Positions 14,352 to 61,375 of a DNA stretch of 61,375 nucleotides are shown in pieces. A program made the position numbers and the translations under genes. Position 1 is the first letter of the stretch. The number at the start of each line of letters is the position of its first letter. This DNA is from a virus (taxonomy: Duplodnaviria > Heunggongvirae > Uroviricota > Caudoviricetes): IMG/VR virus record IMGVR_UViG_3300006145_000003. One strand, 5' to 3'. Below the pieces are notes generated by a model. That model was not told the origin of the DNA. It saw nothing but the letters and a program-made list of their open reading frames with translations, and ran no database searches.

Positions 14352-14752
14352 TAAATTACCTCCTTTACTCCAGCGACAAAAGCTATGTGCCGGAGTTCGT
14401 TGATATCGGCCTGAAAGAAATCATGATTCCAGAGCCAATAATCTTCATCTTCTGGGCGCTTGTATTTTTGGCAAAGAGGGTCGTCCCAGACTCGATTCCA
14501 ACGCTCCTGATATTGCGAATCACGCTTCTTAAGAGTATTTAAGATTGCTTGAGTCAATTTTCCTCGTGTCATTCCTTGACCATCGTTGTTTCGCGCAAAG
14601 AACTGGTGAGCATTTTCGCTAGTGGCAAAACAAACAGGTTTGCCTTTATAAAAGATGACATCGCCAATCTTTTCACATTTAGACATAGCTGGAATATTCA
14701 CTTTTCCACAAATTGCTTCGTCCTTGAATCTCCGGTGCGTTATGTATTTCAT
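14351..14752 (-). CDS. Uncharacterised protein directly downstream of and overlapping the DGR RT
   Basis: AAGGAG RBS; 74-nt overlap with the RT 3' end; WLWNHDFF motif. Confidence 0.7.
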   Translation of the reverse strand: MKYITHRRFKDEAICGKVNIPAMSKCEKIGDVIFYKGKPVCFATSENAHQFFARNNDGQGMTRGKLTQAILNTLKKRDSQYQERWNRVWDDPLCQKYKRPEDEDYWLWNHDFFQADINELRHIAFVAGVKEVI

Positions 14753-15902
14753 TCGTTACTCCTTGTCTTCTAAAGTTTTCAATGTGTTCTGGTGAAAAAC
14801 CATAAATTGAATAGAAAAGCCTACGCAGTCGCAACACTCTGTTATGGTCGTCGTAAGCTCCAAAGTAAGCTAGGATACCATTCACAGAAGTCCACAGGTC
14901 TTCGTAGGTCATCTCTCCATGTTCAATTTTGTTTTTAAAGGCTTTGATTTTTCTTCGAGCTCTTTTTACTCCATCTCGATTGCCGTTAACAATTACGCGT
15001 CCAGTATCAGTAAGACTGTATTTTGCCTTGCAATACCTGAATGGTTTTACTAAGGGAACAATCCTGGACTTTGACTTGCTGATTGTTAGCTTGAGACTTT
15101 CAGCTTTGGCAATGATAAGCCGCATGATTTCTTTCGGGTCACGGTCTGGCGGAACAATGATGTAGTAATCATCCATATAATGCCCTGCGCACTTCATAGA
15201 TAACTGGCATTTGATATAGTTGTCCAGCGCAGATGGGAATGCAATCATCTCGGCCTGGCTCGGTTCGACGCCTAGCGGTAATCCGTAGCCGCCAGGAACG
15301 GTTTTAACTACGCTGTCTCCAACTGCTCTAACTTCAGAATTTAGAATGAGGCTTCGGTGTCGCTTGAATACTTCTTCGTGTGAAACAGATGGAAAGAACT
15401 GTTTAAAGTCCAATAGAATAATATAACCCTCTCGACCATATCTCCTATAATGCCACCTTAGTTCCCTCTTGAGTTCGCGCTTGGAAAATTCAAATCCTTT
15501 TCCTGGTAGACTTGCTCCATTGTTGTATATCATTTGTGGTAAGTATATGGGAAGCAGCGCATTTTGGGTGTATGCTTTATGTATTTGTCTATCTTGAATT
15601 CGTGGTGCATCAATCGGCCTTGTCTTACCTCTTTCAGAGATGACAAAGTGTACATAGGCGCACGGCTTCCATTTGTGGGCAAGCAGTAACTTTCGCCTTC
15701 TGGCAGTCCCAGAAAACAGATGCATTTCAAATCTCTGCGTGCTGTTCTTCCACCGTACACCTTTGCAACATTGCTTACCGGCTTGATACATATCATCGTA
15801 CCCAAATACTTCATGCAAACCGCCAATAGCACGGTTCCGTTTCATAAGATTGACCTTTCTCTTTGCTTGTCTCCGCAAATATCGGCCTTTCCTTCTACTC
15901 AT
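14679..15902 (-). CDS. DGR reverse transcriptase
   Basis: RPIDAPRIQDR, NNGASLPGKG, LDFKQFFPS, GLPLGVEPSQ (DGR-type GxxxSQ), HYMDD catalytic motif; adjacent TR. Confidence 0.95.
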   Translation of the reverse strand: MSRRKGRYLRRQAKRKVNLMKRNRAIGGLHEVFGYDDMYQAGKQCCKGVRWKNSTQRFEMHLFSGTARRRKLLLAHKWKPCAYVHFVISERGKTRPIDAPRIQDRQIHKAYTQNALLPIYLPQMIYNNGASLPGKGFEFSKRELKRELRWHYRRYGREGYIILLDFKQFFPSVSHEEVFKRHRSLILNSEVRAVGDSVVKTVPGGYGLPLGVEPSQAEMIAFPSALDNYIKCQLSMKCAGHYMDDYYIIVPPDRDPKEIMRLIIAKAESLKLTISKSKSRIVPLVKPFRYCKAKYSLTDTGRVIVNGNRDGVKRARRKIKAFKNKIEHGEMTYEDLWTSVNGILAYFGAYDDHNRVLRLRRLFYSIYGFSPEHIENFRRQGVTNEIHNAPEIQGRSNLWKSEYSSYV

Positions 15903-16152
15903 AAATAATTCGCCCTCCGTACAGATTTATTGTAGGGTATCGTTCAATCTGCTTTGCTCCTACACATGAAACGGGGTAAGATACATTGCCCGCCATGCAC
16001 GCTCGTATTAAACGGCGGCGTTCGTGTCAAAGCATCACAGGGCAGTTTTGGACAAAGACTCTTTGTCGCGGGAAGTATTTCTCCTTTCAAATAGGGTCGT
16101 GTTTCACCCTGCATCGGGTTACTGTGATTGACCCAAAGTCATCTCTGACTTC
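15903..16152 (-). ncRNA. DGR spacer (Sp), 3' part of the TR-containing RNA
   Basis: 250-nt non-coding stretch between TR and RT with several stem-loops (agtca-GAGA-tgact right after TR; gacaaag/ctttgtc; agggt/accct). Confidence 0.6.
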
Positions 16153-16284
16153 TTTTGAAATCCGGGGCCACGCCATTGGAATTCCTGGCGTTGTTGTTGT
16201 TCGCGTTGCCGTTCGTGTTCACATTGCAGAAGTTGTTGCTGTTGTTGTAATTAGGAGACCGCTCCCACCAATAGGCCGCAGAAC
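16153..16284 (-). repeat. DGR template repeat (TR), 132 bp
   Basis: Gap-free alignment to 17021-17152 (offset 868); AAC/AAT-rich; reads AYWWERSPNYNNSNNFCNVNTNGNANNNNARNSNGVAPDFK. Confidence 0.97.
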
Positions 16285-16349: not shown

Positions 16350-16805
16350 CTATCTTGATTTATCACTCTTTAGGACGCTAGTAAGCATCCCATTTTCAGC
16401 ATCAATCAGTTCGCCAAGCTCTTGCGCCATGTGCTCCAGCTTTTTCTTAGCCTCAGCGGGCCTTAGAGTTGCACCACTGCTGTTAGTAAAACAACCTGCC
16501 GGGTTGGTCATCATAAGCTCATAGCAGTGTGCAAGATGGACATCGAGCGCCATCAAGGAGGCGCGAGCTTCAAGTAGGTGTCGCTTGCGCAGTTCCTTTC
16601 TGGTCGCATCGGACGGATAGATACTGTTTGCTTTCTCGGTATGGTCAAGCACTTCTGAGGCTAATGTAGAAACCGAAGACGAAATTAGCCTAGAATATCT
16701 TGACGACAAACGCGAGAGGAAGTTAATGGTCTGAATGTATATTTTGTTTGCAGCATTTACAAACTCGGCTTTACTTTCAGACCGGTGTGCCTTTAGAACC
16801 GACAT
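16350..16805 (-). CDS. avd: DGR accessory variability determinant (Avd-like four-helix protein)
   Basis: 151 aa, basic and helical, EKANSIYP...RKRHLLEARASL; sits between target and TR; AAGGAG RBS before ATG at 16805. Confidence 0.85.
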   Translation of the reverse strand: MSVLKAHRSESKAEFVNAANKIYIQTINFLSRLSSRYSRLISSSVSTLASEVLDHTEKANSIYPSDATRKELRKRHLLEARASLMALDVHLAHCYELMMTNPAGCFTNSSGATLRPAEAKKKLEHMAQELGELIDAENGMLTSVLKSDKSR

Positions 16806-16833
16806 AGACTCTCCTTTCATTTTTTCTTTTGGA

Positions 16834-16860
16834 CACCTCTAACCGCAAAGGGGGGTCACC
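16834..16860 (-). promoter_or_regulatory. Repeated oriented motif, copy 1 (GGTGACCCCCCTTTGCGGTTAGAGGTG)
   Basis: 26/27 identical to 61327-61353; ends 28 nt before the avd ATG. Confidence 0.7.
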
Positions 16861-16934
16861 ACGCAAATCTTCAATTTGAATATAAGGTTTACATGATAGG
16901 GGGATAGGGGGGAAATTTAAGGTCCCATCCTTAT

Positions 16935-16950
16935 CCGCAAAGGGGGGTCA
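16935..16950 (-). promoter_or_regulatory. Repeated oriented motif, copy 2 (TGACCCCCCTTTGCGG)
   Basis: 16-bp exact core, 92 bp from copy 1. Confidence 0.6.
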
Positions 16951-16976: not shown

Positions 16977-16992
16977 GCCCACTGTCGTGGGC
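16977..16992 (-). other. DGR target-recognition hairpin downstream of VR/IMH
   Basis: GCCCAC-GACA-GTGGGC on the - strand: 6-bp GC stem with a GRNA-type loop, 23 nt past the target stop. Confidence 0.75.
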
Positions 16993-17015: not shown

Positions 17016-18569
17016 TTAGATTTTGAAAGCCGGGGCCACGCCAGCGGAATTCCTGGCGACGTTGGCGGTCGCGCCGCCGCCCGCGCTCACAGAGCAGAAG
17101 TAGCTGCTGCCGTCGTAATAAGGAGACCGCCCCCACCAACCGGCCGCAGAACTCGTGGCCGTATGCTGGTTCTTCACCTTAGAGTTTCCAGAAGAATAAT
17201 AGGCGTACTGCGCCTGATAGTTTTGCTCTGCACTATTGGCGTATGTTCGCGCACCGAAAATCTCAAACTCTGCCAACAGCGGCAGATAGTCAACAGTTTT
17301 GGTTACATAGGAGGCTGTATTGGAGCCGCCACCAGTGTTGTCCGTGTATTTGTTCATTGGCTGCATCACTGCACGAAGGTCGCTCGGTAAAGCTGCCATC
17401 AAGGTATTTGCAACAGGGCTGGTGGCTGTATTTGTTACCGCATCAGCATTCTTTGTCTTTGTGCTACCAAGAACATCATATCTAAGGTCGCAGCCTTTCC
17501 AACCACCTGAATTTGTATTGGAGCTGTGATTCATATTGAAATATTTAGTACCATCAGTGGAATAGCTGTTGTATTTACTATCAATGAAACAAATATCTGC
17601 ACCACCAGTAAGAGCAGTCTTAAATCCGCCAAAATGGATACCATTGCCCTCTTTTGCGCTGTTATGATTAAAACCGAGGATGTACACATAGTAAGTACCG
17701 TTTACAGAGAGCGTACCAACGGTTCCCTTAATGGTAATAGCCTTGCGGTCACCAACGCTCCAATAGTTTGCGCCTTGATTCTGAGACGAGACCTTGCGAA
17801 TAACATCCCAGGTATTTTCATTCAGCACACGACTAACAGCACGAGGAACTGCGGTAATCCGGTTCGCGGTACTTGTGTTTACAGCGCCCTCTGTAGAAAC
17901 GGGGAAGAGGGTAAAGTAATATGTAGTCTCATTCGTCAACCCAGATACTTCAATGGCATTGCTGGAATACTGGTTCCAAGTTGTGCTATTGACGATAAGC
18001 GTTCCGTCCTCAGGGGACGTTGGATAGCTTCCAGTCTTATATACAAGTTTCGTGCTTGCCCATGTGGAAAGGGTTACACCATCAATTACATTATTAGCTG
18101 CTGGGTCGTTCCATTTCAGGTATACTTTCCCATCAGCAACATCGGCTACGGCGATGTTACTGACATTACCGGTTGGGACAGGGTTGGGAGTAAGAGTTAT
18201 CTCGTTAGCCTCACTATTCGTGTAAGTACCCGTAGCGGAATATGGGAAGAATTTATAATAATAAGTAACACCATCAGACAAACCACTATCGCAAAAATAG
18301 CTTGTCTTATAAGCATCACGAGTTTTGCTATCTAACACCACTGTCCCATCACGACGGCTATTTGGCATAGAACCTGCCTTACGCACCAGCAATGTACCTG
18401 CCCACTTCGCAAGTGTAACCGAATTAAGAACTGTGTCTGCGGGGTCGGTCCACTTGAAGTATGCTTTGCCTGATGCGGTCTGTGTTTTCAAACCACTTAT
18501 GGCAGCAAGTTCAATTCCACCTCCACCGCCAGAACCACTTCCTGATGGAAAGTTAGAAATAATAGGCAT
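17016..18569 (-). CDS. DGR target: receptor-binding tail-fibre protein (2 FN3-like repeats + DUF6273/C-type-lectin-like variable domain)
   Basis: Two W(T/N)DP...DGT...YY.xxFP repeats; C-terminal domain ends in VR (WWGRSP...GVAPAFKI). Confidence 0.9.
   Translation of the reverse strand: MPIISNFPSGSGSGGGGGIELAAISGLKTQTASGKAYFKWTDPADTVLNSVTLAKWAGTLLVRKAGSMPNSRRDGTVVLDSKTRDAYKTSYFCDSGLSDGVTYYYKFFPYSATGTYTNSEANEITLTPNPVPTGNVSNIAVADVADGKVYLKWNDPAANNVIDGVTLSTWASTKLVYKTGSYPTSPEDGTLIVNSTTWNQYSSNAIEVSGLTNETTYYFTLFPVSTEGAVNTSTANRITAVPRAVSRVLNENTWDVIRKVSSQNQGANYWSVGDRKAITIKGTVGTLSVNGTYYVYILGFNHNSAKEGNGIHFGGFKTALTGGADICFIDSKYNSYSTDGTKYFNMNHSSNTNSGGWKGCDLRYDVLGSTKTKNADAVTNTATSPVANTLMAALPSDLRAVMQPMNKYTDNTGGGSNTASYVTKTVDYLPLLAEFEIFGARTYANSAEQNYQAQYAYYSSGNSKVKNQHTATSSAAGWWGRSPYYDGSSYFCSVSAGGGATANVARNSAGVAPAFKI
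17021..17152 (-). repeat. DGR variable repeat (VR)
   Basis: 25 mismatches to TR by hand alignment, 24 of them at TR adenines; 3' GC element GGCGTGGCCCCGG followed by IMH. Confidence 0.97.
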
Positions 18570-51947: not shown

Positions 51948-52982
51948 TCACAAATCAGTAAGACCTTTCTGAGCATCAGAGCGAATTTCGCCATTTTCAT
52001 CGAAGAACTGCGATATTTGCTCTTCGGCACTAATGTCTTTATATACCTTGACCATGTCACTAGATTCCCATCCAACAATCTCTTGGATTACGTTATCAGG
52101 CAATCCGAGTTTGGATAAATGTGTTGTGAAATAGTGTCTTAGGCTATGCCAATAAAAGTCCTCTCCCGTAATTCTGCTAAATGAATTGGCCCAGCTGTTA
52201 AGAGTTGTCTCGCTTATTTGCTTTGACATATCTTCCGCATCAGGAAACAACCATTCACTATCTATTCCGAGCTCACTTCTTTGTTTAATCCAGGCATCCA
52301 AATAAGGCTTAAATTTTTTTGCCAACGTATAGCAGAATATATATTTGCCAAGGCCAAATCCCTTTGTTTGAATTGGTTCGCTTGTTTTGTATAGCGCTCC
52401 ACCACAAACTAGGTTTTCATCGAGAAAGTCCTTAACTCGAAATCTACAAAGTTCAGATTTCCTTCTTCCACTGCACATAGCTAATGCAAGCATACACGCC
52501 TTTTTGTGCTTTCCCATAGATGACAAGGTATTAAGCAAGTCATCCAGCTCTTCATCTTCCCATATAGTCTTTTTACGTACCTGTTGCATAGCTGGATTTT
52601 CGATTTTTCGGACTGTTGACCTAAACCCTTTAAAATCGTCTTCATCGTCCAGAATGTTTTCTACATAGTTACTCATTGACGATATAGCCGACTTAAGTCT
52701 CCTAACCCTAGAAGGAGAGTTGCCATTTTCGTTAATAAGCCAATGTTGATATGCCGCGTAATCACGTTTCGTTATTTTGGGAAAGAATTTATTTCCGTTA
52801 TTAAGAAGATTCCATACCCAAAATATATCTATATCATTTGAATATCCAGCAATTGTTTTTGGACTTCTTTGTACTGACTGTAAATATGCTATAAAATCTT
52901 GTTTGAGACGCATATTTTCTGGATTCACTTGTGCCAAGAGCTCGGGGCTTGTGATATCATTTTGCTTAGTTTTACGGGGCAT
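51948..52982 (-). CDS. Second tyrosine recombinase (XerC/D-like)
   Basis: SGRRKSEL (R), K, HSLRHY (H-x-x-R), VGW, VKVY (Y); N-terminal core-binding domain; start ATG at 52982. Confidence 0.88.
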   Translation of the reverse strand: MPRKTKQNDITSPELLAQVNPENMRLKQDFIAYLQSVQRSPKTIAGYSNDIDIFWVWNLLNNGNKFFPKITKRDYAAYQHWLINENGNSPSRVRRLKSAISSMSNYVENILDDEDDFKGFRSTVRKIENPAMQQVRKKTIWEDEELDDLLNTLSSMGKHKKACMLALAMCSGRRKSELCRFRVKDFLDENLVCGGALYKTSEPIQTKGFGLGKYIFCYTLAKKFKPYLDAWIKQRSELGIDSEWLFPDAEDMSKQISETTLNSWANSFSRITGEDFYWHSLRHYFTTHLSKLGLPDNVIQEIVGWESSDMVKVYKDISAEEQISQFFDENGEIRSDAQKGLTDL

Positions 52983-53011
52983 CAAAGCCACCTCGCTTTC
53001 GTAATTATTAT

Positions 53012-53087
53012 TGGGTGCGGATACGGGAGTTGAACCCGTTCTTCGAGGCTTATGGGGCCCGTGACTTAACCGTTTGTCCTATCCGCA
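53012..53087 (-). tRNA. Atypical/degenerate tRNA, anticodon CAT (Met/Ile2-like)
   Basis: 76-nt cloverleaf: TGCGGAT/ATCCGCA acceptor, GAC/GTC D-stem, ACGGG-TTCAACT-CCCGT T-arm, encoded CCA; non-canonical A8, C33, C27:C43, C73. Confidence 0.7.
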
Positions 53088-54640: not shown

Positions 54641-55405
54641 TTATGCATTTGCCATTCGATATCTCATAGCGGCATTGATATTTTGTTTAGCCCTAACCTC
54701 AGCTGCACAGTTCTGACAATATTTTTGTCTTCTTCCCTTGTATGGGGAGTTCATTTTCACGGTCAGTCCGCAGTTCTCGCATATAAAGTATGGCCCTCCA
54801 TAAAATTTTTCATATTGGTAGCCCAGGTTTCGAAAATCTATAATATGTATCGCGGACTCATCGTCACAAATGAATTCAACTTGAACATTCAGATTATCTA
54901 TCTTCTTTGAGAATTTAATCAGGCCATTGGCTCTTAACTCAGAAAACATTAGGCTTTGACGCTTAATTGAAGTGTTAATGTTTGCCATCTGCATTATTTC
55001 TTTGTCTGAACAATTTGACCAATGATTATTTGTTTCAGAAACTGCATCCCAGTATTTGGCGGAGCAAAGCAGAGTAAATGCAAGTCTTCGAATTTGTTTC
55101 CCATTTAGCTTTTCTATTTTTTCTAACTCATCGTATGACACATCGACTCCATCCAATATTACCAAAGAATATTTGTTGCAAGATTTCACAACTTTATCTA
55201 ATGTGTCTGACCACTTTGGGAGAGAAGCTGATGGGTCGCATTTTAACAAAAAATCATCCAATAAACTTCTAATCTCATGCTTGCTATAATGATTTGCGTG
55301 ATAGTATCTTGCAACTCTGCTTAATGTTTCAACTGGCTTGTTTCCTAATTCATGCTCCCGAATCATGTTTTCTGCCCACTCATATTCATTAAGAATCAAG
55401 CTCAT
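54641..55405 (-). CDS. RNAP-adjacent protein with a C-terminal Zn finger
   Basis: CENC...CQNC; ATG at 55405 with GGAGG RBS overlaps the RNAP stop. Confidence 0.7.
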   Translation of the reverse strand: MSLILNEYEWAENMIREHELGNKPVETLSRVARYYHANHYSKHEIRSLLDDFLLKCDPSASLPKWSDTLDKVVKSCNKYSLVILDGVDVSYDELEKIEKLNGKQIRRLAFTLLCSAKYWDAVSETNNHWSNCSDKEIMQMANINTSIKRQSLMFSELRANGLIKFSKKIDNLNVQVEFICDDESAIHIIDFRNLGYQYEKFYGGPYFICENCGLTVKMNSPYKGRRQKYCQNCAAEVRAKQNINAAMRYRMANA

Positions 55406-58142
55406 AGAATTCCTCCATTCTTTTATCAGCAACTGTAAATCTGTTTCCACCGTACTCTATTTCTCCATCAGAATCCAGGGTAGGATAGTGCATCATCCAC
55501 CCTTTGTTCATAGCGATATTTCGAATAATCTCATGCCCACACATTTCCCACGCAAATTTTTTCGTAGAACTCTTTTTATAACATACGTCCAATATAATAT
55601 CGCATAGTGCAAGCTTGTCGGTGCAAACCTTAGCACACTCCTGTTCAAATTCAGATTTCATTTCAGACATACGCATATACGCATCGCATTCATCTATGCG
55701 CTCGTATTTTGAAAATATTGCATAGCTTTGCAGCCGTTTGTTATATTCATCGTATAGCCTTGAGATTGAATTTAACTGAGAGCGTGTGTACTCGGCTCCA
55801 CTTTTCATGATGTTATAATCGAACTCGACTCCGTCATTATGACTGCCTATATATCCGTCAAAAGCTTCTTCGAACTTCCGGCATATACGATTCATTACAC
55901 AATCGTTTGTACCGACTGGCATACGCGCTTCGTAATATCTTAGAAAATCATTTTGCCTATCCGTGCGTTCATCTCGTGGAATATTATAAAGTTCATTTAT
56001 GGTCATGTGGAACTCTCTCAAAGAATTCTTATTTGTATTCTTGATGTAAGTATTATATTGTTTCATAAGGGCTGGATATATGTATCGCATAAAATACGGT
56101 TTCTTGTCAGCGACAATGCTAAGGTAGAATCTTCTTCTGTCAATATCTTCAATTTGGTTAACGCTGTGCCTATCATGCCACTCTCTCGGCATCGGTTTTG
56201 CAATGATGCCTTTAGCTTTGTCAATGGCATTCTGCTGAAAAAGCTGCCCGCATTTAATCCTATAGTCTAACTCTTTATATTCTCTGGACTCCCTTGGGTA
56301 TCCAGCCTGGACATCAAACATAGATGTTATCCAGTTTGTTGTCTTGCCAATATCATCTCCAAAACTATCTATATTAGATTGAATGGAATCCTCTTCACAA
56401 ACTATTTTTTTGTTTGCTTTGCGCTGTACGCACATGAGTGCTGGCAATTCTTTCAGTCTCGTTACAAGGATATTATTGTCAGTCAGCATCACCAAGTCGC
56501 CGTCCTTATCCATTCCATTTAGCGCATGTGCCGCCGTATCCCAGGAATTGAAGATTGTGCATGATGTCATATATTGATACCAGTGCTCTGCGTCTTGACT
56601 GCGATGTGGATAAACTAGGCGAACGTTATTATGACAGGTCATTGGAGCTCTGAAGCAGGCGAGCCGTTTTGAATCTATCCTGCACCAGTATCGGTTATAT
56701 ATTTCTCCAGACTTGAGGATACCTGTAACCTCCATCCCAAAAATGCTTTGACATAGGGAGTATGGGTCACCAGACACTATCGAGTAGTTTCCATGTACTT
56801 TGAGTACGCCGACCTTCGCCTCGTTGATTCGGTTCTTTATGAGAGAGTATATATTGCTCTTAATATGGGGGTCATCCATCATCTCCGGTGCTATCATTAT
56901 TGCTTTAGCGTAATCATCCTCTGATTTTAGGATATTAGCATCGTTCAAACCGGCCCCCTTCAAAAACAGAACGGTCTTTCTCCAATCGTTGGATAAAACA
57001 TCTTCTATCTCATGGATGGTAGGGGATATCAATTCGTCTATATCTTCATCTGACAGCTCGTAGCTTTGAATGAACTGATAGTTGAGATTTCTTTCAGACT
57101 CCAACTCTTTTGGACATGTCTTTGCTATACCGAACGAGTAACCGTTTTGAAGGCAATTCCTTATGTAGTCTTCACAGCCCTTATATGAATCCCACAGCTT
57201 TAGCATGGATGTAGTAAGAATTAGCTCAACATTCCTGATATCCACATCCTGTCCCCACGCGTCTTTAACCGTGTATGTATGTGCTACAGTTTGAGCAAAG
57301 TCCAGAAAGTCGAAGGTGAATACCATTCCTTTTTCCCACGAGAATCGAGTATTGACACCGCTTACCAAATAGTCTAATCCAAGCTCTTCGCTCCATCGTG
57401 CTGCAAGGCTTGGCAGCATCAATCCATATCCGTCAGATTCGTTTAGCTGAACCATTACATTATTGCGCTCTTCCATTAAGGGCTCGACTTGGCCTTCGTC
57501 ATTTAGATAAATGATATCTGACAGAAACTCTGTTTCACAATCTGGTACCACTAAGATTCCTTTTGGCATTGATACTGGGTTTGAGGCACTACATGTCAGT
57601 GCTTTGTATGCTTCAAGCTTGGCCGGAACCATTTCAACGCTTAAATCTCTTCCATTATCAATTCTTCGCCTTAGCTCATCCACCACCTTCGAGCTAACAA
57701 ATACGATGGTTTCATTTTTGACCCCTCCGTTTGTGCCAAGTAATCTTTGATATTTCACTCCGTTTATACTAAACCCTCTGCAAGCCCTTCGATAATCGCT
57801 TTCTTTATCCATAATTACACACATATAGTCTGGCTTGAATTGTACATCGTCTAACTTTGAATAAAGTGACTTAATCTGCTTTCTGTTTTGGATGCTGTTC
57901 GGCTCTTTGCGCAGCTGTCGAATCTGAAGCTTGGTTTCTCTTGCAATAGCGTCTGCATCTGTTATTCCGTTTATCTCATCAATCCATCTCAACACCTGAC
58001 TATCTGCGAGTGATATTATCTCATCATTTTTTCGTGCCTCTGATATAGGGAGTGTCAGTTTCCATTTTGCTTTTCGTAGTCTGCTGCTATGTATTTTATA
58101 TATATACTTTTGGCATACTAACTGTTTGCTTATGTTCTCCAC
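55389..58142 (-). CDS. YonO-like single-subunit (two-barrel) RNA polymerase
   Basis: 917 aa; NESDGYG, RAPMTCHN, NGMDKDGD (DxDGD metal motif), IGKTTN; SPbeta-like synteny upstream of the late operon. Confidence 0.85.
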   Translation of the reverse strand: MENISKQLVCQKYIYKIHSSRLRKAKWKLTLPISEARKNDEIISLADSQVLRWIDEINGITDADAIARETKLQIRQLRKEPNSIQNRKQIKSLYSKLDDVQFKPDYMCVIMDKESDYRRACRGFSINGVKYQRLLGTNGGVKNETIVFVSSKVVDELRRRIDNGRDLSVEMVPAKLEAYKALTCSASNPVSMPKGILVVPDCETEFLSDIIYLNDEGQVEPLMEERNNVMVQLNESDGYGLMLPSLAARWSEELGLDYLVSGVNTRFSWEKGMVFTFDFLDFAQTVAHTYTVKDAWGQDVDIRNVELILTTSMLKLWDSYKGCEDYIRNCLQNGYSFGIAKTCPKELESERNLNYQFIQSYELSDEDIDELISPTIHEIEDVLSNDWRKTVLFLKGAGLNDANILKSEDDYAKAIMIAPEMMDDPHIKSNIYSLIKNRINEAKVGVLKVHGNYSIVSGDPYSLCQSIFGMEVTGILKSGEIYNRYWCRIDSKRLACFRAPMTCHNNVRLVYPHRSQDAEHWYQYMTSCTIFNSWDTAAHALNGMDKDGDLVMLTDNNILVTRLKELPALMCVQRKANKKIVCEEDSIQSNIDSFGDDIGKTTNWITSMFDVQAGYPRESREYKELDYRIKCGQLFQQNAIDKAKGIIAKPMPREWHDRHSVNQIEDIDRRRFYLSIVADKKPYFMRYIYPALMKQYNTYIKNTNKNSLREFHMTINELYNIPRDERTDRQNDFLRYYEARMPVGTNDCVMNRICRKFEEAFDGYIGSHNDGVEFDYNIMKSGAEYTRSQLNSISRLYDEYNKRLQSYAIFSKYERIDECDAYMRMSEMKSEFEQECAKVCTDKLALCDIILDVCYKKSSTKKFAWEMCGHEIIRNIAMNKGWMMHYPTLDSDGEIEYGGNRFTVADKRMEEFYELDS

Positions 58143-59550: not shown

Positions 59551-60134
59551 CGTCTCCTTTCTCAATAATTTGAAAACCTGTACACAAAATCGGGTGGGCT
59601 GCTCCACCCTTGTTGAAGTGAGCTGTTCTCATGACCTCCCTCTCTATTCTTTCTTTTTAAAGACCCACTCTAATCCGTTGTGCGCCAAGGGCTAATTTTT
59701 AAAGCTGTACAGTGGCTCTGTACAGTTTTGGTTTTCACCTATTCAATTTTCAAGGTTCGACGGCCAAGTAAACTATTTAATTGACTTGACTATGCCTTTA
59801 TTTTACCAGGTTTTTTTCAATTACGCAAGTCATATTAGTAGGCGATATTCCAGCGAGATATTTCCTAGAGAAAAACGCACGGTTATGGGGTCGCAAGGAA
59901 CAGGACATCTATTCCGTTGTCGATTTGACAATAAAACGTACAGTAATGAGCGGTACAATAAAGAGCTTTTATTGCTTTTTGGACAGGCAAATCAGAGAAA
60001 AAAGCGGTGATAGTGTGATGAACCCACTAACACAAAATATCAACGGCGCGGGGGCTGAAAATCCCATAACTACCCCCCTACTTGCCATAGCGTGAAAAGG
60101 GCAAGTAAAAATTTGCCCTATCTTTTCGGCCTAG

Positions 60135-60157
60135 GGTGACCCCCCCTTTGTGGTTAG
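60135..60157 (+). promoter_or_regulatory. Repeated oriented motif, copy 3 (GGTGACCCCCCCTTTGTGGTTAG)
   Basis: One extra C and one C>T relative to the consensus; ends 22 nt upstream of the -35 box. Confidence 0.65.
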
Positions 60158-60179
60158 CATAAGAAATCAAAAAATTATA

Positions 60180-60208
60180 TTGACAAATTGCAAACAAGGT
60201 GCTAATAT
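60180..60208 (+). promoter_or_regulatory. Sigma-A-type promoter with an extended -10
   Basis: TTGACA (60180-85), 17 bp spacer, TG-c-TAATAT (60203-08). Confidence 0.7.
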
Positions 60209-60309
60209 ATCTATGTCGAGTAACGGCAGGCGTCACCCGCTCCCCATTCTACCACATGGGGCACGCCCCCACACCACACAAAAAATACATAGCAGAAAGG
60301 AAAAACAAC

Positions 60310-61248
60310 ATGAAAAACGCAACTACCACAAATGCCACGTTTGAGAGCGTCAAGCGCAACTTTGAGAACGCCCACGCAAGCGGCGCGGACTATAGCAAGG
60401 AATTAACCGCCCTTGCAACTGCCGTTGCCTATAGCGTGTTGAAAAAATGCCTTGACCCCCAGCGCAAAACGGCCGTTGACCGGGAAGAGGTTAGCAACAA
60501 CGGCCAAAACCCCACCTTGCAAGCCGTCCGGCGCGGTATACGCAAGGACTATGAAACACTAGCAGGAACGGAATACACCGCAAGCCGCGCAACCCGCGCC
60601 ACGCTCAATGCAGACGGTGACCCCATCACCGAAACGGCAGACAAGGCCGCACAAAAAGCCCTCAATAAAATCATACGCGAAACACTTTCCGACGGTATAG
60701 ACCTAGTGCAGGGCGCGGCCCTTGCCATACTGGAACAGGCGGCAGAACACGCCGCCCCTGGTGAATGGCTTGACAGGCCGTATACTGTGCGCCGGCTTGC
60801 AAGGCGCGTATATATTCGCCGCAACGATAGCGCCGCCTATAGGGACGACACCACGACCCCAATACAAGAAATTTATAGGGCCGTCCGGCGCGAGGTGCAG
60901 AACAGCCGCGCCATACAGACAGACCCCCGGAACGGCTATAGCTACATAGAGGACATAGCGCCGGGCGGGCTGGACATTATTTTTTATCGGACGGGCAAAT
61001 ATACAGACCTTGGGGGCGTTGACAGCGCGGGCAATTACACCACAAACCGGCAGGCGTTAGCAGACTATAACGCCATCATGGAAAAGTTAAACTTGACCCC
61101 ACGTCAAGCCAAAGTGTTAGAATTGCGTATGCAAGGCAGAGGAAAAAAAGCTATCGGGACATACTTAGGGATTGACCCCAACAACGTTGGGCGCACGTTA
61201 AGACAGATACAAGCCAAGGCCAAAGAAATAGGCTTGACCCCGGCATAA
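60310..61248 (+). CDS. Sigma-factor-like / LuxR-type HTH regulator (312 aa)
   Basis: C-terminal LTPRQAKVLELRMQG...AIGTYLGI...VGRTLRQI (sigma region-4-like HTH); AGAAAGG RBS before ATG at 60310. Confidence 0.65.
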   Translation: MKNATTTNATFESVKRNFENAHASGADYSKELTALATAVAYSVLKKCLDPQRKTAVDREEVSNNGQNPTLQAVRRGIRKDYETLAGTEYTASRATRATLNADGDPITETADKAAQKALNKIIRETLSDGIDLVQGAALAILEQAAEHAAPGEWLDRPYTVRRLARRVYIRRNDSAAYRDDTTTPIQEIYRAVRREVQNSRAIQTDPRNGYSYIEDIAPGGLDIIFYRTGKYTDLGGVDSAGNYTTNRQALADYNAIMEKLNLTPRQAKVLELRMQGRGKKAIGTYLGIDPNNVGRTLRQIQAKAKEIGLTPA

Positions 61249-61256
61249 TAGACAGC

Positions 61257-61286
61257 GGCGGCGCGTATGCGCCGCCTTTTCTTTTT
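61257..61286 (+). terminator. Intrinsic terminator
   Basis: ggcggcgc/gcgccgcc 8-bp stem followed by ttttcttttt. Confidence 0.85.
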
Positions 61287-61298
61287 GGACAAAAAACC

Positions 61299-61375
61299 GC
61301 AAGCCCAGCGCCGCCCAGCCCGCCGGGGTGACCCCCCTTTGCGGTTAGGGGTGCAAGGCAAGCCCAGCGCCGCCC
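61299..61375 (+). repeat. Direct repeat with a 59-bp period containing motif copy 4, running to the window edge
   Basis: gcaagcccagcgccgccc at 61299-61316 and 61358-61375; motif GGTGACCCCCCTTTGCGGTTAGGGGTG at 61327-61353 lies between them. Confidence 0.75.

Follow-up and report, generated by a model that had tools for sequence, protein, structure and literature searches.

The nearest known kind of system to the one described here is an autoregulated alternative or phage sigma factor together with its cognate promoters, autoregulation being typical of ECF sigma factors. Another system that invites comparison is the 15-bp SPbeta repeated element (SPBRE), which is bound by the master repressor MrpR, a protein with the tyrosine-recombinase fold; early and lysogeny genes provide the roughly 10 promoter regions with MrpR binding peaks (PMC10516654). 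The cis elements of BPP-1-type DGRs include the IMH, the GC stretch and the hairpin or cruciform that flanks the VR. Literature searches brought up neither a dedicated regulator nor a promoter element described for a DGR, in agreement with the initial annotation of the DNA analyzed here, which was aware of none described for a phage DGR. They also found no report of a YonO-family phage promoter beyond one mapped start site (PMC5467207).

The window (the whole stretch of viral DNA that was analyzed, 61,375 nt) is syntenic from end to end with G008, an IMG/VR genome of 119 kb that is 99% complete, and therefore represents approximately half of an SPbeta-like gut phage of Oscillospiraceae/Clostridia with a genome of about 120 kb. 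Assemblies that contain relatives of its sigma-like gene come mostly from Oscillospiraceae/Clostridia. The YonO-like single-chain RNA polymerase encoded in the window shows 40% identity to its counterpart in Clostridium phage c-st and 26% identity to those of SPbeta phages. The module that includes the sigma-like gene (60100-61375) has a GC content of 54%, compared with 43% for the whole window; the respective values in the 119-kb relative are 55% and 46%. A host or chimeric origin of this GC-rich end (60-61.4 kb) was rejected, as the same region is syntenic and equally GC-rich in the 119-kb relative. Rfam assigns a tRNA to positions 53015-53087 (-) with 42 bits, and ARAGORN calls none in the window.

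The motif under study is found as a 27-mer at 16834-16860 (-) and 61327-61353 (+), the two copies differing in a single base (26/27 identity), and had 0 matches in 100/100 dinucleotide shuffles. Its 16-nt core is found again at 16935-16950 (-), and the copy at 60134-60157 (+) is a variant that has an additional C and a C>T replacement. In total, the window carries exactly four copies, where none are expected by chance: two before avd, the first gene of the DGR operon, and two at the locus of the sigma-like protein (Table 1), referred to here as the U (upstream) and D (downstream) copies. Core scans that allowed 1 or 2 mismatches detected no fifth copy with the C-rich 5' half in the 61-kb window, the additional matches being limited to the short core. 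All four copies are intergenic, point in the same direction as the downstream gene or unit, and lie just after a terminator or hairpin. The U copy ends 22 nt before the TTGACA box of the sigmaA promoter, and the D copy at 61327 is found 50 nt past the hairpin and T-run of the terminator. These positions, orientations and variants agree with those given in the initial annotation. The window ends 22 nt past the last copy, inside the second unit of a motif-bearing 59-nt tandem repeat (an 18-mer is present at both 61299 and 61358).

Table 1. Features of the window and of related loci (positions refer to the window unless a locus is named)
Feature	Position	Strand	Remarks
DGR reverse transcriptase (RT)	14679-15902	-	
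RT-2 RNA motif (RF03077)	15892-16136	-	Between TR and RT
DGR template repeat (TR)	16153-16284	-	
avd, first gene of DGR operon	16350-16805	-	Behind two motif copies
avd-proximal motif copy	16834-16863	-	5' box GGTGACCCC, constant core, 3' GAGGTG box; ends 28 nt before the likely avd start
avd-distal motif copy	16926-16950	-	92 nt upstream of the proximal copy; followed by a conserved G-rich/C-rich hairpin-like stretch
DGR target gene	17016-18569	-	VR at 17021-17152; hairpin at 16977-16992, just upstream of the distal motif copy
Tyrosine recombinase, intact	51948-52991		Between the two motif sets; no obvious site
YonO-like single-chain RNA polymerase	55389-58142	-	Two genes from the sigma-like gene; given as context, its use of the motif being conjecture
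U (upstream) motif copy	60134-60157	+	Preceded by a terminator (60098-60119) and followed by the sigma-like gene's sigmaA promoter
SigmaA-type promoter of sigma-like gene	60180-60208	+	TTGACA-17-TAATAT, with TG
Sigma-like protein, 312 aa	60310-61248	+	C-terminal sigma region 4/LuxR-type HTH; N-terminal 245 aa weakly sigma-domain-2-like; candidate motif reader
Intrinsic terminator of sigma-like gene	61257-61276	+	Hairpin plus T-run
D (downstream) motif copy and start of second 59-nt repeat unit	61324-61375	+	Window ends there
RAGATH-16/RAGATH-4 (Rfam) after motif array	L003:2601-2983, L010:4553-4686, L011:4454-4836	same strand	

The DGR is of the classical type, with adenine-specific differences between TR and VR, a GC hairpin behind the VR, and the RT-2 motif between TR and RT. 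Nucleotide searches gave no cultured-phage match for this region. The two motif copies, 92 nt apart, occupy the interval between the stop codon and hairpin of the target gene and avd, for which the ATG at 16805, preceded by an AAAGGAG ribosome-binding site, is a likelier start than the ATG at 16820. No sigmaA-type promoter is found on the correct strand between the motif and avd. The 92-nt spacing appears to have no special meaning: it recurs in the DGR of G007 but is 108 nt in G008 and 66-94 nt elsewhere, and the 92-nt tandem unit of the sigma-like locus L003 is unrelated to it in sequence. Directly after the distal copy, at 16885-16925 (-), there is a G-rich arm followed by a loop and a long C-run (GGATGGGAaCC...CCCCCCC); this stretch is kept in 9 distinct DGR loci and could be a leader RNA hairpin. 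Relatives of the RT with 73-76% identity (L014/L015, corresponding to G008:5368-6570 and G007:58612-59823) contain two in-frame TAA codons per match, which represent either alignment overhangs or real interruptions.

Sequence methods recognize in the 312-aa protein only a C-terminal HTH of the LuxR/sigma-region-4 type, with the Pfam domains Sigma70_r4_2 and GerE below their cut-offs and TIGR02937 matched with E = 7e-6 at 25.7 bits against a cut-off of 42.9. In the AlphaFold model (pLDDT 76), the C-terminal domain matches region 4 of sigmaH, CnrH, sigmaF, sigmaD and sigmaE with Z scores of 7-8.6 (rmsd of 1.4-3.6 over 55-67 residues); this HTH also matches LuxR/GerE/NarL domains. When residues 1-245 were modeled apart (pLDDT 77), most of the top matches were to sigma domain 2, including those of pro-sigmaK, WhiG, SigI6, ShbA, sigma28/32/S and SigC, with Z scores of 4.5-6.6 over 85-108 residues, which is below the caution level of the tool for helical proteins. 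The nearest named ESM Atlas clusters of the N-terminal domain are annotated as Sigma70_r2 (score of 0.87, taken as a lead only). A Foldseek search of the full model against PDB gave no match at E <= 0.001, and its weak rows were nearly all sigma factors in holoenzymes. In sigma factors, region 4 reads the -35 element, and region 2 serves in core binding, -10 recognition and melting. The modeled structures are consistent with a divergent two-domain sigma-like factor, in which the assignment of domain 2 is tentative. Homologs of this protein are numerous, with more than 1,300 detected, all of them unnamed; a tblastn search of 50,697 phage records found none in cultured phages.

Approximately 100 loci encoding relatives of the 312-aa protein were taken from viral, genome and metagenome collections. 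Their layout consists of an upstream terminator, one U copy, a near-consensus sigmaA promoter, the gene itself, a strong terminator, and the D copies. The U copy precedes the TTGACA promoter by 21-38 nt, with distances that vary among loci (21, 32-33 and 37-38 nt). The D copies, 1 to 7 in tandem with periods of 49-92 nt, are followed on the same strand by RAGATH-16 and then RAGATH-4 RNAs, with RAGATH-16 detected in 16 of 20 metagenome loci and in 4 of 8 loci of another set. There is no sigmaA-type promoter between the D copies and the RAGATH RNAs, and the D motif array may itself be the promoter of these orphan RNAs. Further RNAs found in such loci are RAGATH-36 in L011 and an HDV-like ribozyme in L013. 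The 119-kb relative carries exactly four copies, as does the window (U, D, and two before avd), and a complete 112-kb relative has the same four sites, three of them clear and the D copy represented by a 2-mismatch variant. Many contigs stop about 60-220 nt past the sigma-like gene, and several contigs of genome size (117.8 kb and 123.5 kb; L035, L040, L065 and others) end 140-150 nt after it; assemblies of these phages seem as a rule to break at the tandem motif array. In G002 and G008, the sigma-like gene has as its divergent neighbor a gene for a short tyrosine-recombinase-like protein of 275-284 aa that lacks the N-terminal SAM-like domain (L001:1776-2603 and L010:1523-2377), and a matching 275-aa ORF points to the same arrangement in G001. 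The product of this gene may be MrpR-like. The gene is absent from the window, where the 59608-60097 interval holds a single 74-aa ORF.

An alignment of 59 distinct U copies, 58 D copies and 23 avd copies, anchored on the TTGCGG core, reveals a constant core, CC-TTGCGG-TTA-GGGTG, and a variable 5' box. Read from 5' to 3', the consensus has GGGT at -11 to -8, variable positions at about -7 to -5, a C-run at -4 to -1, TTGCGG-TTA, and a GGGTG-like box at +10 to +14. Throughout this set, the motif lacks symmetry and keeps a strict orientation. It has no conserved dyad: the weak TGACC-n9-GGTTA symmetry, which the initial annotation took for a feature of the element, disappears in the other box types found in relatives. 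In all four site classes, the start of the 3' GGGTG box lies 21 bp from that of the 5' GGGT-nnn box, which is slightly short for a bipartite promoter (boxes about 16-18 bp apart). The strongest conservation falls between the two boxes, where a canonical -35/-10 promoter would have its spacer, an unusual feature. Two potential secondary structures were considered and rejected, a GGGG-loop-CCCC hairpin in the 5' box, which is absent in the CACCCCACCC and GTTTGCCCC types, and a stem that would join the 5' box to the 3' GGGTG box, the pairing of which is lost across box types. Single 16-mer matches in L002, L004 and L006, with no sigma-like gene nearby, look like chance or terminator sequence. An array is found at positions 4940-5380 of L005 (IMGVR_UViG_3300018427_001108), an unrelated 6.7-kb phage fragment that encodes no sigma-like homolog. 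It consists of at least 12 head-to-tail constant cores (TTTGCGGTTA plus GGGTG) with a 22-24-nt spacing and differing 5' boxes, and lies between an ORF for a treble-clef zinc ribbon and the large-terminase gene.

The 5' box falls into approximately 25 types, each paired with one type of recognition helix in the C-terminal HTH. Thus, the box GGTGACCCC goes with the helix DPNNVGR, GGGTACACCCC with TQRAIAK, GGGGTTGCCCC with TYQAVQN, and CACCCCACCC with RPDSVRD. Comparison of the U box with the D box of the same locus showed identity in 46 of 55 loci and no more than one mismatch in 52 of 55. Pairs of loci were stratified by the identity of the N-terminal domain, i.e., the rest of the protein, and their boxes were then compared. 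Over all strata, box identity was 10.6-11.0 of 11 when the two proteins had the same helix, as opposed to 5.3-9.0 when the helices were different. At 60-70% N-terminal identity, the respective values were 10.9/11 and 6.4/11, and at >90% identity, 11.0 and 9.0. Part of this covariation could come from co-inheritance, given the physical linkage of the gene to its U and D copies. The pattern supports a role of the region-4-like HTH at the C-terminus as the reader of the variable 5' box, which extends from about -11 to -3 relative to the TTGCGG core.

The motif, which is oriented, conserved and specific to these phages, stands at avd in each case where the sigma-like gene was found. Of the 36 viral contigs that encode an avd relative, about 20 carry the motif before avd, at about -150 and at -52 to -85 from the avd start, mostly as a pair (L115 and L134 carry the proximal copy only). 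Both loci could be read in eight genomes (the window, G001, G007, G008, G009, G017, G018 and G019), and in 8/8 of these, which represent five box types, the avd copies bear the box type of their own genome at a distance of about 45 kb from the sigma-like gene. As the genomes compared are related, neither of these counts (~20/36 and 8/8) represents independent events. In G001 and G018, one C>T in the C-run is the sole difference between the avd box and the box at the sigma-like locus. Between the window and G008, avd is 84% identical and the boxes are different; between the window and G001, the RTs are only 32% identical and the boxes are the same except for that C>T. As judged from these comparisons, the box type at avd is independent of DGR ancestry. 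Five phage records with a related DGR (avd 73-74% identical) lack the motif, and no sigma-like gene was found in them, one of these records being 96% complete and the other four 53-79% complete. In the motif-less DGRs that were examined, the spacer between the target gene and avd is only about 90 nt long. G016 (95% complete) has one avd copy and no detectable sigma-like gene. The presence of the motif before avd in about 20 of the 36 contigs and the matching box types in 8/8 genomes argue that the sigma-like locus and the DGR are functionally coupled. The type-matched avd copies also lend support to the initial proposal of an operator or phage-specific promoter that would place avd-TR-RT in one regulon with the sigma-like locus, for which retention of the motif upstream of avd in relatives had been suggested as a check; the early/lysis-lysogeny character suggested there for this regulon is conjectural.

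Since no other recognizable promoter stands behind the avd and D copies and the protein is sigma-like, the motif is most likely the promoter of this protein. We put the probability at about 0.55 that the motif is the cognate recognition site, most likely a promoter, of the sigma-like protein of this phage, with a regulon that includes the DGR. We infer that the protein binds the motif; the constant core and the 3' GGGTG box would be read by some part of the protein or by a partner. In this scheme, the host sigmaA promoter would provide for the first synthesis of the sigma-like protein, which would then bring RNA polymerase, most likely the host core enzyme, to the four oriented sites. The U copy upstream of its own gene would make the factor autoregulated; the D copies past the terminator would serve a non-coding unit, which in the relatives contains RAGATH-16 and RAGATH-4; and the two copies before avd-TR-RT would switch DGR mutagenesis on only when the sigma-like factor is present. 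A broader version of this scheme, to which we give somewhat less than even odds, would see about 25 mutually orthogonal factor/promoter pairs in a large family of gut phages, with a regulon made up of the factor, the RAGATH ncRNA unit and the DGR operon as a whole, and with the first dedicated DGR switch. Among the observations that speak against a promoter, tandem sets of up to 7 copies, as well as the L005 array of at least 12, resemble arrays of binding sites, and the distance from the U copy to the sigmaA -35 box varies among loci.

The covariation of box and helix would fit equally well if the motif were an operator and the sigma-like protein a sigma-derived or LuxR-type transcription factor that activates or represses nearby promoters used by another polymerase form and regulates its own gene at U, with the D arrays as a buffer. 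The matches of the HTH to LuxR/GerE/NarL domains, the full sigmaA promoter downstream of the U copy, the varying copy number of the tandem arrays and the 22-24-nt spacing in L005 all agree with such a role. However, no sigmaA-type promoter on which this factor could act is detectable beside the avd or D copies, LuxR-type dimers bind palindromic sites whereas the motif has no symmetry and a strict orientation, the spacing between U and the -35 box shifts by half helical turns, and the N-terminal domain resembles sigma domain 2, not a receiver or ligand domain. On balance we consider an operator unlikely, but it is still a serious rival because the most conserved block lies between the boxes and the arrays look like binding sites. 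It is decidedly improbable that the motif is instead a promoter of the YonO-like single-chain RNA polymerase, with the sigma-like protein as its specificity factor. The sigma-like gene does lie two genes from the polymerase gene in both the window and its relatives, the mapped YonO start precedes an unannotated ncRNA (PMC5467207), and a smaller enzyme might go with a compact motif whose boxes lie nearer to each other than those of a host promoter. Still, YonO homologs are encoded without a sigma-like protein in SPbeta, c-st and Enterocloster phages and in G011, G013 and G014, and none of the four sites per genome precedes virion genes, whereas the YonO of SPbeta drives the late operon. The docking place of sigma region 4 is the beta flap. 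YonO, on our reading of the discussion in PMC5467207, has no beta flap, which is a further argument against its use of such a factor.

The conserved, type-matched avd copies, absent only where no sigma-like gene is found, also argue that these copies are not incidental, as they would have to be if the motif formed iterons, a centromere or a packaging array and the protein were a replication initiator, a partition adaptor or a small-terminase-like protein. An arrangement of one repeat upstream and several downstream of a gene does recall P1 repA, which is flanked by the incC and incA repeats; in addition, the L005 array adjoins a large-terminase gene, and many contigs end shortly past the sigma-like gene. 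The contig ends, however, are explained by the tandem repeat, at which assembly is expected to stop; the fold matches are to sigma factors, with none to Rep, ParB or TerS; and complete relatives have just one or two D copies. Iteron-controlled replicons have an initiator of the Rep/winged-helix type and an AT-rich unwinding element next to the iterons; the D region has a GC content of 54%. We regard this reading as very unlikely. Much the same holds for an element that acts in RNA, through processing, stability or antitermination, at the 5' end of transcripts begun further upstream: the strict orientation and the structured RNAs nearby (TR/RT-2 and RAGATH-16/-4) would suit it, but no base-pairing scheme is kept across box types, the D copies are located behind a strong terminator, and the partner in the covariation is a DNA-binding helix. 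Finally, the initial annotation raised the possibility of recombination sites that flip the virion/RNA polymerase module; in that case the tyrosine recombinase at 51948-52991 would act on them to invert the 43-kb segment. The two motif sets, at 16.9 kb and at 60-61 kb, are indeed inverted relative to each other, and the recombinase encoded between them is intact and has no obvious site of its own. Yet a single order and orientation is seen in 8/8 genomes with both loci (as consensus assemblies, these are blind to rare in-population inversion), neither the dyad nor an inverted-arm core is conserved, same-strand pairs and arrays of up to 7 tandem copies would be out of place at a crossover, the type of the box goes with the HTH protein, and the DGR and the ncRNA unit would be separated from nothing evident. 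This reading is the least probable of those considered, and the proposed flipping of the module is not supported.

If the motif is a cognate promoter of the sigma-like factor, the DGR would belong to a small dedicated regulon, and there would be a first testable handle on the switching of a phage DGR. What is available here is a pair consisting of a defined cis element and its named trans candidate, seen repeatedly in a family with more than 1,300 detected homologs of the protein, together with a covariation table that predicts which factor acts on which site. Two orphan Rfam motifs, RAGATH-16 and RAGATH-4, would be assigned a likely promoter, and the family would offer a natural set of orthogonal factor/site pairs. 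These data are also relevant to transcription and promoter recognition in YonO-encoding phages (PMC5467207). A homolog of the sigma-like protein is annotated in Acutalibacter muris, a cultured gut bacterium that could provide an experimental system.

Compared with the described systems, the motif resembles the SPBRE in being a short intergenic element repeated in a large YonO-encoding temperate phage, with a phage-specific regulon. Unlike the SPBRE, it occupies four sites, and its candidate reader is the sigma-like HTH protein. The comparison with MrpR made in the initial annotation is therefore an analogy only and does not extend to the reader, which is unlikely to be a recombinase-fold repressor: the integrase-like gene of G001, G002 and G008 is missing in the window, yet the motif persists, and the box tracks the HTH protein. 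As with the cis elements of BPP-1-type DGRs, two of the copies lie in the spacer between the target gene and avd, right after the VR-flanking hairpin. In contrast to those elements, however, the motif is outside the retrohoming machinery, is dispensed with by related DGRs (avd 73-75% identical) that have a 90-nt spacer, and is also found at a locus that has no DGR. The HTH has the same four-helix structure as the DNA-binding domains of LuxR, GerE and NarL and belongs to the same superfamily, but those domains bind inverted repeats as dimers, whereas the motif has a direction, and the sigma-like protein contains neither a receiver nor an autoinducer domain.

The closest resemblance is to ECF-type (group 4) and phage sigma factors, such as T4 gp55 and SPO1 gp28/gp34, which share with the sigma-like protein, as interpreted here, a build of two domains, sigma2-like (tentatively so in this protein) and sigma4, an oriented cognate site before their own gene, a small number of target units, and a specificity that is set by the region-4 helix. 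Unlike them, the protein described here falls below the cut-offs of the curated families and has beta-hairpin inserts in its N-terminal domain, and its motif is most conserved where a canonical promoter has the spacer. It also differs from them in the diversity of its specificity, with about 25 types in one family, and in its predicted targets, a DGR and an ncRNA unit.
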